NCBI GenBank assembly: GCA_965205485.1
Contig: OZ242180.1
Location: forward strand, 1,216,001-1,280,000
Length of the DNA: 64,000 bases
Source: Candidatus Latescibacterota bacterium
GTDB lineage: Bacteria; Latescibacterota; UBA2968; GCA-2709665
Direction of reading: 5' to 3'
The notes beneath the pieces are model-generated. The model saw only the letters and a list, made by a program, of their open reading frames with translations. It did not search any database and had not been told where the DNA came from. This document shows, piece after piece, positions 51,797-53,999 of this stretch (the stretch's first letter is position 1; each line of letters opens with the position of its first letter). The position numbers and the translations under genes were made by a program.

Positions 51797-51889
51797 CCGA
51801 GACGGGACGTCGCAGGGCGGCAACAGGGCATCCAGGCGAATCCGTTGCCTTGGCGACGTTATGCGGTGTCCAATTTCAGGGTGTACGAA

Positions 51890-52954
51890 ATGTGGGGACG
51901 AATCGCCCGACGCGGTGCGGCCCGCAATGGACAGGGTCATAGGAGACCATCCGAAGCCTTCCGCGAGTCCACCTATCCTCCTCCGTATCCCGATGGGTGG
52001 TACAGGGTGGCGGCATCGGCTGACATCAGCCGCGGCGAAGTAACGTACGTCGAATGTCTTGGGAAGCAGATTGCGCTCTTCCGGAGCGAATTGGACGGAC
52101 AAATCTTCGCAGTCGATGCCTTCTGCCCGCACATGGGTGCCAATTTGGCCCATGGCACGGTAATTGGCGACCAGTTGCGATGTCCCTTCCACGGCTGGCG
52201 GATTGACGGACTTGGACAGATCCGAGGCACTCCCACGAACGACAAACTACCAACCAGGACCCATACACACTGGGAAGTGATGGATTATTACGGCATGGTC
52301 GTGGTCTACCACGCAGAGCACATGCCGGATCGAGTCCTTTACCGCCTTCGCGAACAGAGCAGGATAGATCGCGGGCAGTTTGATTACCGGGGGAAGTACG
52401 AAGCCGGCGAAGTGGGCATGCATCTCATAGAGTTCGCCGAAAACGCCGTGGACTTCCAGCATTTCCCTGAGATCCACGGCGTCATGCATATACCGTGGAC
52501 CCGGTTCCCCATCCCCTTCATCAAGATTCACCACGAAGCGAGTTGGGAATCCGATGCCGACTCGACTCATCTTGCCTATTTCAATGATCATAGCATGCTC
52601 GAGATACTGGGTCGAAAGATGCAAAATACCGCGGCCACCGCCAGAATCACTTTCCATGGACCTGGCGGTATCGTCCAGTTTGATTTTTCAATTCCCAATC
52701 TGGGCGGAATCACCATGTTTCAGACGCATACGCCCATCGCACCGCTCAAGCAGCAAGTTCATTTCTCGTGGTTCGCAGAAAAGCGCGTTTCCCGGATTCT
52801 GGCCAGTTATGTAGTGGGTAACTGGGTGTCGCAATGGCGGAGGGACGTGGAGATCTGGGAGAACAAGATCTACAGACGGAAACCGTTGCTCACCAGGTCC
52901 GACGGGCCCGTGCATCGAATGCGCCAATGGTACCAACAGTTCTACGCGACATGA
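51890..52954 (+). CDS. Rieske non-heme iron oxygenase of the Neverland/DAF-36 (cholesterol 7-desaturase) / KshA family
   Basis: YPPPYPDGWY, Rieske CPHMGANL...CPFHGW, HLIEFAENAVDFQHFPEIH iron motif, DVEIWENK..KPLL...DGP....RQWYQQFY; start uncertain (51845-51890). Confidence 0.85.
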   Translation: MWGRIARRGAARNGQGHRRPSEAFRESTYPPPYPDGWYRVAASADISRGEVTYVECLGKQIALFRSELDGQIFAVDAFCPHMGANLAHGTVIGDQLRCPFHGWRIDGLGQIRGTPTNDKLPTRTHTHWEVMDYYGMVVVYHAEHMPDRVLYRLREQSRIDRGQFDYRGKYEAGEVGMHLIEFAENAVDFQHFPEIHGVMHIPWTRFPIPFIKIHHEASWESDADSTHLAYFNDHSMLEILGRKMQNTAATARITFHGPGGIVQFDFSIPNLGGITMFQTHTPIAPLKQQVHFSWFAEKRVSRILASYVVGNWVSQWRRDVEIWENKIYRRKPLLTRSDGPVHRMRQWYQQFYAT

Positions 52955-52973
52955 CCCGACGAAGTGTAGAATA

Positions 52974-53999
52974 ATGACTGGCCCCATACACATCCCGGTT
53001 TCGAAGGGTGTTAAGCGAGAAGCAACCGTGCGGGCTGCCGAAAAATACCGCAGTTTTCATGACGAAGGAAATGGCGGAGGTTATCAAGATCGAAAGCGCC
53101 GTTACATGGAAATGGTCAACCAGTATTATAATCTGGTTACCGATTTCTACGAGTATGGATGGGGTCGGTCCTTTCACTTTGCGCCGCGCAAACGGCACGA
53201 GTCATTTGAGGATTCCCTGATCCGCCACGAACTTTTCCTCGCCGAAGCTATCGGCCTCCATCCCGGTATGAGGGTGTTGGACGTCGGTTGCGGCGTAGGG
53301 GGTCCGATGCGTTTGATGGCGAGGAAGTTCGGCGCCCATGTGGTTGGTCTCAATAACAATGAATATCAACTGGACAAGTGCGAAGCCTACAACAAAGCGG
53401 CCGGCCTCCAGCATCAGACAGAGATTCTGCATGGCGACTACATGCAGATCCCGGCCCCGGATGCCAGTTTCGATACCGCCTTCCAGATCGAGGCCACGCC
53501 CCATGCACCGGACAAGGAGGGGGCCTTTGCCGAAATTTGGCGCGTGCTGCGACCAGGCGGCAGGTTCGGCGGCTACGAGTGGTGTACGACTCCCGGTTAC
53601 AACGCCGAGGATCCAGCCCATCAGGAGTTAAAGAAGGGCATTGAGACGGGCAACGGTCTCCCGGATATCGCGTCGTTCGATGACGTGGTCGGAGCCTTGC
53701 GAAGCGCGGGATTTGAAGTAATCGAATCCTTCGATGCCGCCGACAGATCCGACCCGGAGACGCCCTGGTACCGTGCGCTGGAGGGTCGTGACGTATCTTT
53801 GGCAAGCCTGCCGAGAACGGCCATCGGCCGGTTTGTCACCACTTGGACACTGCGGTTACTCGAGCCGCTCCGCATCGTGCCAAAGGGCACGACCGATGTA
53901 CAGAAATTGCTGAACCTGGCTGCCGACAGCCTCGTTGCCGGCGGCCGCCTCGGCATATTCACGCCGATGTTCTACTACACGGCGCGCAAGCCGCAATGA
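52974..53999 (+). CDS. Sterol 24-C-methyltransferase (ERG6/SMT1-like)
   Basis: VNQYYNLVTDFYEYGWGRSFHFAP, LDVGCGVGGPMR, GLNNNEYQ, IEATPHAP, YEW, IETGNGLP, LVAGGRLGIFTPM....RKP (Sterol_MT_C-type terminus). Confidence 0.92.
   Translation: MTGPIHIPVSKGVKREATVRAAEKYRSFHDEGNGGGYQDRKRRYMEMVNQYYNLVTDFYEYGWGRSFHFAPRKRHESFEDSLIRHELFLAEAIGLHPGMRVLDVGCGVGGPMRLMARKFGAHVVGLNNNEYQLDKCEAYNKAAGLQHQTEILHGDYMQIPAPDASFDTAFQIEATPHAPDKEGAFAEIWRVLRPGGRFGGYEWCTTPGYNAEDPAHQELKKGIETGNGLPDIASFDDVVGALRSAGFEVIESFDAADRSDPETPWYRALEGRDVSLASLPRTAIGRFVTTWTLRLLEPLRIVPKGTTDVQKLLNLAADSLVAGGRLGIFTPMFYYTARKPQ

Follow-up and report, generated by a model that had tools for sequence, protein, structure and literature searches.

Why does Candidatus Latescibacterota bacterium carry a gene for a Rieske oxygenase that resembles sterol desaturases directly upstream of a gene for a sterol C24-methyltransferase (SMT)? 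The original prediction, made from the window (the whole stretch of 64,000 nucleotides that was analysed), was that the two enzymes tailor host or dietary sterols.

Layout of the cassette and its insertion site

The two genes are co-oriented and 19 bp apart, as first described: both ORFs are on the + strand, at 51845-52954 and 52974-53999, and all of the motifs quoted for the two proteins are found in the translations. The Rieske gene probably starts at the ATG at 51890 rather than the TTG at 51845, giving a protein with the length of several of its closest homologs. The features are as follows.

49634..51796, + strand: katG catalase-peroxidase, left flank outside the cassette (Pfam peroxidase and synteny; name read from the sequence)
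51797..54135, + strand: extent of the cassette relative to congeners, in which katG is joined directly to bcp
51845-52954, + strand: open frame of the Rieske gene, present as predicted
51890..52954, + strand: soluble Neverland-clade Rieske non-heme iron oxygenase, from the likely ATG start, 354 aa
52955..52973, + strand: 19-bp spacer, consistent with an operon
52974..53999, + strand: sterol 24-C-methyltransferase, 341 aa (Pfam Sterol_MT_C and residue check)
54156..54632, + strand: bcp-type peroxiredoxin, right flank outside the cassette (Pfam AhpC-TSA and synteny)

The site between katG and bcp is empty in 13 of 14 same-genus genomes, and all eight of the empty sites inspected have a clean spacer of 38–230 bp with no Rieske remnant. 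GC3 is 0.66–0.67 in the cassette genes versus 0.77–0.81 in the metB-like and katG genes. katG also lies upstream of the SMT gene at loci L001–L004. A sequence scan of the cassette for promoters and terminators gave nothing usable, and no terminator-like site was found on its + strand. In several homologous loci the Rieske frame overlaps the first SMT codons, as judged by eye from printed junctions.

A methyltransferase from a known bacterial family

The SMT matches Pfam Sterol_MT_C (PF08498) at 81 bits (cut-off 21.7) and Methyltransf_11 at 76 bits, both over the cut-off. It has all of the residues on a published list of conserved SMT positions (bioRxiv 10.64898/2025.12.19.695621), 19 located by script from motif anchors and six by eye; the anchors were used without an aligned yeast sequence, and W286 was one residue out of register. 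In yeast numbering, the protein has Tyr81, Tyr83 and Asn249. The residues reported for propylating bacterial SMTs, which make C30 sterols, are Gly249 and Phe at 81 or 83, so Y81, Y83 and N249 set the window protein apart. Indeed, the G249N mutant of a propylating SMT makes no C30 sterol (bioRxiv 10.64898/2025.12.19.695621). Since Gly249 is reported to be necessary for propylation, the enzyme is predicted to transfer one or two carbons rather than three. A second SMT in the focal genome does have Gly249. Possession of the residues does not guarantee activity, given that four SMTs with every conserved residue were inactive in vitro (Brown and Welander, bioRxiv 10.64898/2025.12.19.695621).

The window SMT shares domains, conserved residues and habitat with bacterial SMTs of sponge symbionts (Brown et al. 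2023, PMC10070321; Brown and Welander preprint). Brown et al. found an active SMT in a Chlamydiae MAG with no other sterol genes, and raised the possibility that host-acquired sterols are methylated; the main text of that paper does not mention a Rieske protein, desaturase or Neverland, and its Supplementary Data 1 holds no such partner (PMC10070321). The protein is thus not the eukaryote-type rarity it was first taken for, but belongs to a large bacterial family that has already been assayed in vitro. Cholesterol lacks the delta-24 bond, and hence the SMT needs a suitable host sterol.

What kind of Rieske protein is it?

The Rieske protein has matches to Pfam Rieske (PF00355, 81 bits) and KshA_C (PF19298, 80 bits). 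The Rieske ligands (C79/H81/C98/H101), the bridging D188 and the iron ligands (H191/H196/D319) lie in columns that are invariant or near-invariant across 144 homologs. An alignment-based structural model has a pLDDT of 94.6 (31 for a single-sequence prediction); its best PDB fold match is KshA, with a TM score of about 0.7 at 23–25% identity, and no Neverland is among the PDB matches.

Phylogeny places the protein elsewhere. It falls in a 52-row clade with animal and protist Neverland-like proteins (support 100/98), and a grouping with KshA is rejected (AU test, p 0.004), in trees built under LG+G4 with no mixture model, on references that are database-annotated orthologs and do not include DAF-36 or the ciliate enzyme. 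The KshA references are plasmid genes, one of which lies beside kstD, a ferredoxin reductase gene and hsaABCD, with the others assigned by similarity. Animal Neverlands form their own clade (100/99), and the window protein lies outside it, in a bacterial subclade that it shares with myxobacteria and that is placed among protist sequences. Identity is 49–53% to myxobacterial, 36–44% to protist, 28–35% to animal and 26–29% to KshA sequences. The myxobacterial homologs include those of the cultured Enhygromyxa and Nannocystis, for which sterol profiles exist. The window protein has the two domains and catalytic motifs of Neverland, DAF-36 and the Tetrahymena Rieske desaturases. Unlike Neverland, which has an N-terminal membrane helix, it has no N-terminal transmembrane anchor (maximum 19-residue hydropathy 0.92, versus 2.0–2.8 in 9/9 eukaryotic references), and its gene is operonic with an SMT gene. 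The original description of an animal or ciliate Neverland style therefore stands insofar as the protein is nearer Neverland than KshA, but its nearest relatives are myxobacterial and then protist, and it lacks the anchor.

Delta-7 chemistry is suggested by this phylogeny, and no measured activity for the bacterial Neverland-like clade is reported in the open-licence literature searched. Regiochemistry in the family can shift: as summarized in one preprint, four substitutions change that of the D. pachea Neverland, which acts on delta-7 sterols (bioRxiv 10.1101/2025.04.14.648839). No electron donor is linked to the Rieske gene at the locus; the focal genome has native Rieske ferredoxins at contig positions 4827263-4827517 and 50355-50663.

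How widespread and how stable is the pairing?

Of 80 SMT loci, 10, drawn from several phyla, have an intact Rieske-SMT pair in the same order and with the same spacing, and 8 further loci have broken or remnant Rieske genes. All of these loci fall inside one SMT clade (SH-aLRT 98). A control search with the same DNA profile over downstream stretches gave one weak match (E 0.14), so the pairing is more than chance; two weak upstream nhmmer matches (L031, E 0.079; L063, E 0.059) were set aside because they are not positional. Among the 26 loci of the clade, the Rieske gene is decayed or deleted at 8 by profile search and at 3 more by eye, and has left no trace at 5. Assembly errors may account for some of the frameshifts but probably not for the large deletions. 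The pairing is thus conserved beyond the focal genome, but the coupling is incomplete, with the Rieske gene often lost and the SMT gene kept.

A second arrangement occurs in Myxococcota, where the SMT gene lies upstream of the Rieske gene for 5 of 15 homologs, with one additional divergent pair; the paired myxobacterial SMTs form their own SMT clade. Nine of the 15 have no complete adjacent SMT gene (adjacency only was scored). The same is true of 12/12 close metagenomic Rieske homologs (46–53% identity), one of which has an SMT fragment at the contig edge. The pair is also found on contigs of sponge metagenomes that other studies produced; for the metagenome datasets, the four best matches were left out as possibly coming from the source sample, runs with a share <0.2 were not used, and one run (X7) gave fragments only. 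No SMT-Rieske fusion was seen, with no methyltransferase domain in the 37 long homologs (500–800 aa) scanned.

The pair is shared horizontally and has a patchy distribution. Over 11 intact pairs, Rieske and SMT distances co-vary (Mantel r 0.92, with related pairs that are not independent), and both genes are under purifying selection (dN/dS 0.06–0.21 in computable pairs). Between the focal genome and its nearest relative, dS is 0.07 versus 0.49 for the Rieske and SMT alleles, indicating that the alleles recombine separately.

Synthesis, degradation or tailoring?

The original prediction noted no epoxidase or cyclase in the window, and this holds for the whole focal genome, a single contig that is 97% complete: oxidosqualene cyclase (OSC) and SQMO are absent. 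CYP51 and ERG4/ERG24 were not found there either. There is no match in the genome to the delta-24(28) reductase family (PF01222), a real negative given that the family is matched in 8/16 other genomes, or to the FAD_binding_6 reductase family (PF00970), for which the control matched in 9/14 genomes. On the degradation side, KshB, KstD and Kst4D-like proteins have no match in the genome at E 1e-4, and HsaA, C and D have only 22–25% matches. The proposed genome check thus found no osc/sqmo, KshB or FAD_binding_6 reductase. The lack of OSC, KshB and KstD supports tailoring rather than synthesis or degradation. The focal genome also has an MMPL and LolA-like lipid transport locus, homologous to one around an SMT gene in Dadabacteria.

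The wider picture is mixed. No cyclase is over the cut-off in 9/11 intact-pair genomes, a soft result outside the focal genome because the completeness of the other MAGs is not given. OSC is present in the remaining 2/11 and in 4/6 myxobacteria with an adjacent SMT gene, so the pair alone is not proof of scavenging. Hence, tailoring in place of de novo synthesis fits this genome, which lacks synthesis and 9,10-seco genes, but cannot be read from the pair itself, which also occurs in sterol-making bacteria. The suggestion of ergosterol-like products was overstated, since no PF01222 reductase was found and no C22-desaturase was identified. A supposedly missing C5-desaturase in myxobacteria was dropped as a candidate argument; the supplement of PMC10202945 already lists C-5 desaturase homologs.

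What might the putative operon do?

We judge it somewhat more probable than improbable that this is a mobile two-gene operon that tailors sterols, with the Rieske enzyme most likely converting delta-5 to delta-5,7 sterols and the SMT acting at C24. The operon would move horizontally among sponge-associated bacteria, whose cells would import sterols that they cannot make, from the host or from sterol-producing neighbours. With SAM, the SMT would methylate a delta-24 sterol such as desmosterol at C24, judging by its family and residues, yielding 24-methylene and perhaps C29 sterols, as relatives assayed by others suggest. The soluble Rieske enzyme would introduce a double bond into ring B, with O2 and with electrons supplied by a donor encoded elsewhere; as in Neverland, the conversion would most likely be from delta-5 to delta-5,7. 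One step would alter the ring system and the other the side chain, and neither has to follow the other; this is in keeping with loci that have repeatedly lost the Rieske gene yet kept the SMT gene.

A sterol-tailoring operon whose Rieske enzyme has another chemistry (hydroxylation, delta-5 desaturation with delta-7 sterols as substrate, or introduction of the delta-24 bond that the SMT requires into the side chain) is the less likely of two related possibilities, yet one to be taken seriously. Tight coupling in two gene orders suggests sequential steps, the clade is distinct from animal Neverland, and the D. pachea Neverland has switched to delta-7 sterols. On the other hand, the known relatives act on rings B/C (Neverland at C7 or C5, KshA at C9). 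The boldest version, that the soluble Neverland homolog desaturates the side chain of cholesterol and supplies the resulting delta-24 sterol to the adjacent SMT, is improbable. It draws on the Capsaspora paper, according to which the enzyme that would introduce delta-24(25) into cholesterol is not known (PMC4967820), but myxobacteria that encode a cyclase have delta-24 intermediates in any case and still keep the pair, and an SMT that outlasts the loss of its substrate supplier is harder to explain. If true, symbionts could make C28/C29 sterols from animal cholesterol with two enzymes, and these sterols could go back to the sponge host.

The same losses bear on the idea that the pair is a historical travelling unit in which the SMT alone matters to most carriers and the Rieske protein is optional cargo acting on an unrelated steroid. 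The frequent decay and separate recombination described above favour this idea; nevertheless, we think it unlikely, given that purifying selection on intact Rieske genes is as strong as on SMT genes, that a different phylum shows the linkage in a second arrangement, and that some frameshifts may be artefacts of assembly, even if large deletions probably are not. A KshA-type 3-ketosteroid 9-alpha-hydroxylase, serving steroid ring opening and degradation, is very unlikely. KshA is the best PDB match by sequence as well as fold, and the window protein shares with it solubility, the KshA_C domain, and the Rieske and 2-His-1-Asp iron sites. Against this, no Neverland was among the PDB matches, animal Neverlands likewise match KshA_C, KshA lies in a separate clade at low identity and a joint clade is rejected, its KshB partner and kstD/hsa pathway are lacking in the focal genome, and methylation ahead of degradation makes little sense. 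We give as little credence to substrates that are other cyclic or linear isoprenoids. The genome does have two adjacent squalene/phytoene synthase-family genes and no cyclase, but the SMT carries a C-terminal domain specific to SMTs, together with the residues common to functional ones, and characterised members of both families in the literature surveyed use steroids only.

Relation to known systems

No paper describing the Rieske-SMT pairing was found in the open-licence literature, searched for bioRxiv preprints in their main text; the original impression that it had not been described is borne out to that extent. The closest precedent is a synteny of SMT, cytochrome P450, Rieske and flavoprotein genes in many phyla, proposed to serve an unknown steroid pathway (Hoshino and Gaucher 2021, PMC8237579). 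However, that cluster has P450 and flavoprotein neighbours, whereas the window pair has katG and bcp, and its Rieske protein is reported as missing in myxobacteria and eukaryotes (PMC8237579, SI Text 3, Table S2), whereas the window protein has homologs in myxobacteria and protists. A second, "type B" Rieske clade adjoins GPP34-P450 and flavoprotein genes and is also present in the focal genome, 40 kb away; the window protein and type B as one clade are rejected (AU p 0.0001). From their description and the gene order in one Dadabacteria genome, the Hoshino-Gaucher Rieske protein appears to be type B. A few rows of their Table S2 could be of the window's type, the comparison being by description and not by accession. 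The Rieske protein of locus L135 is of the window's type (49% identity), though labelled type B in the tree.

A parallel exists in Capsaspora owczarzaki (Najle et al. 2016, PMC4967820), likewise a host-associated microbe with a Rieske C7-desaturase and an SMT that act on imported cholesterol. It differs in being a eukaryote with unlinked genes, and in also having a C22-desaturase and a delta-24(28) reductase, the latter from a family not found in the focal genome.

Functional implications

The SMT type is already known, and the apparently undescribed element is its pairing with the Rieske gene. The case for sterane biomarkers in the original prediction is not new, having been put forward in Brown et al. 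2023 (PMC10070321). Little is added for fossil biomarkers, since C24 alkylation by bacteria has been published and the window SMT is not expected to produce the C30 sponge marker. Steranes would not retain a double bond introduced in the ring.

If the favoured reading is true, sponge symbionts that lack a sterol pathway modify the sterols of their host or community in the ring as well as in the side chain, and a mobile bacterial cassette could set part of the sponge sterol profile. A bacterial enzyme of the Neverland clade would then have an activity assigned for the first time. Carriers would be expected to lose the Rieske gene in hosts whose sterols already contain the delta-7 bond, comparable to the Neverland loss proposed in ergosterol-eating insects. 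The C. elegans protein is reported to end up in inclusion bodies when made in E. coli (PMC7609953), and a naturally soluble homolog would make it practical to study the structure, mechanism and electron donor of Neverland.

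The gene pair and its site

The original prediction described two co-oriented genes carrying sterol-enzyme motifs. Both lie at the positions claimed, 19 bp apart on the + strand, and contain those motifs:

51890..52954, + strand: Rieske oxygenase gene (Rieske and KshA_C domains); probable start ATG at 51890, giving 354 aa, as in several of the closest homologs
52974..53999, + strand: sterol C24-methyltransferase (SMT) gene (Methyltransf_11 and Sterol_MT_C domains)

The pair is flanked by genes for a catalase-peroxidase (katG) and a bcp-type peroxiredoxin, in a genome consisting of a single 5.13 Mb contig that is 97% complete. 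An O2-dependent oxygenase now sits between two peroxide-removing genes (window 49634-54632), and it is a matter of speculation that the Rieske gene perhaps uses the katG/bcp promoter. Elsewhere in the window (59898-60575), a 225-aa ORF without a Pfam match is followed by, and coupled to, a glyoxalase/extradiol dioxygenase-like gene.

Conservation and mobility

Is the pairing conserved in other genomes? An adjacency search indicates that it is. The genome collection holds 183 confirmed SMT loci, of which the best 80 were scanned. At 10 of the 80 an intact Rieske gene lies directly upstream of the SMT gene; these records carry the labels Gemmatimonadota, Chloroflexota, Thermodesulfobacteriota, Alphaproteobacteria and unclassified bacteria. 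The Rieske gene is full-length but frameshifted at one further locus and partly deleted at four. At three more loci all that is left, where the gene would be expected, is a short piece of its 3′ end (E 3e-4 to 1e-2 in a small search; downstream control stretches gave a single match, E 0.14), and a remnant is visible by eye only at another three. The SMTs of all these loci fall in one clade (SH-aLRT 98) that accounts for 26 of the 80 loci; no Rieske trace was found at five of the 26, one of which has only 183 bases upstream. Outside this clade, none of 54 loci has the arrangement, and one has a divergent Rieske neighbor. Rieske and SMT distances co-vary over the 11 intact pairs (Mantel r 0.92), and dN/dS is 0.06-0.21 for both genes in pairs where it is computable. 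There is a second arrangement in Myxococcota, where a reciprocal search found a close Rieske homolog in 15 of 251 genomes: SMT is directly upstream of Rieske on the same strand in five, these five SMTs forming a clade of their own, and is divergent in one (the seed genome). Speaking against the linkage, no complete SMT adjoins the Rieske gene in the other nine, or in any of 12 close metagenomic homologs. Overall, the two genes make up a genuine unit that is conserved and shared horizontally.

The pair is also an inserted, mobile unit. katG is joined directly to bcp in 13 of 14 same-genus genomes, and no Rieske remnant was found at the eight congeneric katG-bcp sites inspected (spacers of 38-230 bp). 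Across 168 genomes of the phylum, the Rieske gene occurs only in the focal genome and one other, G006 (E 1e-60). At third codon positions, GC amounts to 0.66-0.67 within the cassette versus 0.77-0.81 in two flanking genes, a metB-like gene and katG. Comparison with G006 (whose contig C52 and locus L005 are one and the same DNA, counted once) gives a dS of 0.07 for the Rieske gene, which is nearly identical, versus 0.49 for SMT, so the alleles have recombined. Identity falls sharply at the junction of the two genes, from 99% to about 72-76% (window 52910-53200 compared with L005 and sequencing runs X5 and X8). SMT position 83 is Phe in the L005 allele and Tyr in the window allele, so the alleles may differ in methylation number. 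At loci L001-L004 (about 5790-6000), SMT directly follows katG, and the Rieske gene is deleted down to a few 3′ codons. These loci share the katG link with the window but not the bcp link, which suggests transfer anchored on katG.

The two proteins

By identity, the Rieske protein is closest to myxobacterial proteins (49-53%), followed by three protist proteins (36-44%), animal Neverlands as annotated in databases (28-35%) and KshA-type proteins (26-29%). A tree of 69 rows places it among animal and protist Neverland-like proteins, in a clade supported at 100/98 that leaves KshA outside; within this clade its partners are myxobacterial rather than animal. AU tests on 38 of the rows reject its grouping with KshA (p 0.004) or with type B, a second bacterial Rieske clade (p 0.0001). 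These trees used LG+G4 with no mixture model, gave long-branch warnings and left out DAF-36 and ciliate sequences. The predicted Neverland-like rather than KshA-like affinity stands, although the nearest kin are myxobacterial and not animal. No hydrophobic anchor was found, while all nine eukaryotic references tested have one, placing the protein outside the membrane-bound animal family. A confident structural model (pLDDT 94.6) best matches KshA in the PDB (TM about 0.7), which speaks to fold and not to reaction. The enzyme therefore probably works like Neverland and, judged by sequence, is an uncharacterized soluble branch of that family. Protist-type homologs of 550-800 aa (P0245, P0248, P0251, P0276 and similar) carry a 200-350 aa N-terminal extension without a Pfam match. 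A Planktothrix agardhii plasmid locus (L095, NZ_LR882940.1) clusters three Rieske genes alongside genes for a carbamoyltransferase and an emopamil-binding family protein; 28-30% identity to the window's Rieske protein is seen for two of the three products.

The SMT has the 25 residues that are reported to be shared by functional SMTs (19 checked by script and six by eye, one of them a single position out of register). It has Y81, Y83 and N249 in yeast numbering; in a preprint on SMT residues, Gly249 is reported to be needed for propylation (bioRxiv 10.64898/2025.12.19.695621). The predicted product is C28, possibly C29, but not C30. The focal genome has a second, stand-alone SMT of another clade (G000:C1:983891-984940; L090:8892-9941), about 52% identical, which has Gly249 but Tyr81/Tyr83; the two could act in sequence. 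In a divergent SMT-like clade common in the genus and order (L145-L155, L157), Met/Trp replace Tyr81/Tyr83, and these proteins may use another substrate.

Genomic setting and proposed function

The window was said to lack squalene epoxidase and oxidosqualene cyclase, and this holds for the whole focal genome. No ERG4/ERG24 family gene was found there (the family is matched in 8 of 16 other genomes), and CYP51 gave only a 24% match. Two adjacent squalene/phytoene synthase-family genes are present (G000:C1:4314332-4315947), with no terpene cyclase over the cut-off. Oxidosqualene cyclase occurs in two of 11 intact-pair genomes, with none over the cut-off in the other nine, completeness being given for the focal genome only. 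The six myxobacteria with adjoining SMT and Rieske genes include four with a cyclase and five with full-length sterol reductases, so the pair also serves sterol producers. A locus encoding an MMPL transporter, a LolA-like protein and a probable outer-membrane protein (G000:C1:2224858-2229220), 45-60% identical to the genes that flank SMT at loci L007, L009 and L010 of Dadabacteria, is on this likeness a candidate sterol uptake or export system. Three metagenomes from three studies contain the pair: one sponge contig runs from the end of katG through Rieske and SMT to bcp; another sponge metagenome has the cassette in pieces, one contig bridging both genes; and a marine contig covers both.

The reading we modestly favor overall is that the cell would import sterols, SMT would methylate C24 of delta-24 sterols, and the Rieske enzyme would desaturate ring B. 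Taken singly, the SMT activity is highly likely, and delta-7-type chemistry for the Rieske enzyme is reasonably likely. These steps act at different ends of the sterol, which fits one gene being lost where its partner stays. The source could be the sponge or neighboring sterol-producing symbionts, which are described as common in Ircinia (PMC9531527); both are compatible with the data.

The main competitor, that the Rieske enzyme does different chemistry, is unlikely but deserves weight. That the Rieske gene is loose cargo is improbable. KshA-type degradation is very improbable; the focal genome yielded no KshB, KstD or FAD_binding_6 reductase. Equally remote is the use of non-sterol substrates, the SMT having the conserved residues.

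Prior work and related clusters

In the text and Supplementary Data 1 of Brown 2023 (PMC10070321), SdmA is the only Rieske/desaturase partner found. SI Text 3 and Table S2 of Hoshino and Gaucher 2021 (PMC8237579) describe SMT in synteny with an uncharacterized P450, a Rieske protein and a flavoprotein, the Rieske protein being reported there as absent from myxobacteria and eukaryotes. That Rieske protein is most likely type B (matched by description, not accession), since 20 of 21 KshA_C loci checked in these genomes are type B, and 14 of the 20 have a P450 or flavoprotein in the short flank. Further related literature includes Najle 2016 (PMC4967820), Petrusma 2014 (PMC4064121), Lee 2023 (PMC10202945), Lee 2025 (PMC12004948) and bioRxiv 2025.04.14.648839. 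No description of the present pair was found in the literature searched. It combines one known enzyme type with one uncharacterized soluble Neverland-family branch, and is easy to test, if less surprising than first held.

The focal genome has a second steroid-type cluster 40 kb from the window (G000:C1:1307783-1315650; L091:9784-17653), comprising a type B Rieske gene, a GPP34-P450 fusion, a 3-beta-HSD-like dehydrogenase and an RND-type transporter. This is the Hoshino-Gaucher gene set minus the flavoprotein, which was not found in the genome. A Dadabacteria-type genome of 1.6 Mb (G047; L007, L008, L252, L253), in which no cyclase match was found, has three SMT-like genes, two window-type Rieske genes and one of type B, together with two GPP34-P450s, a flavoprotein and two ERG4/ERG24 genes.
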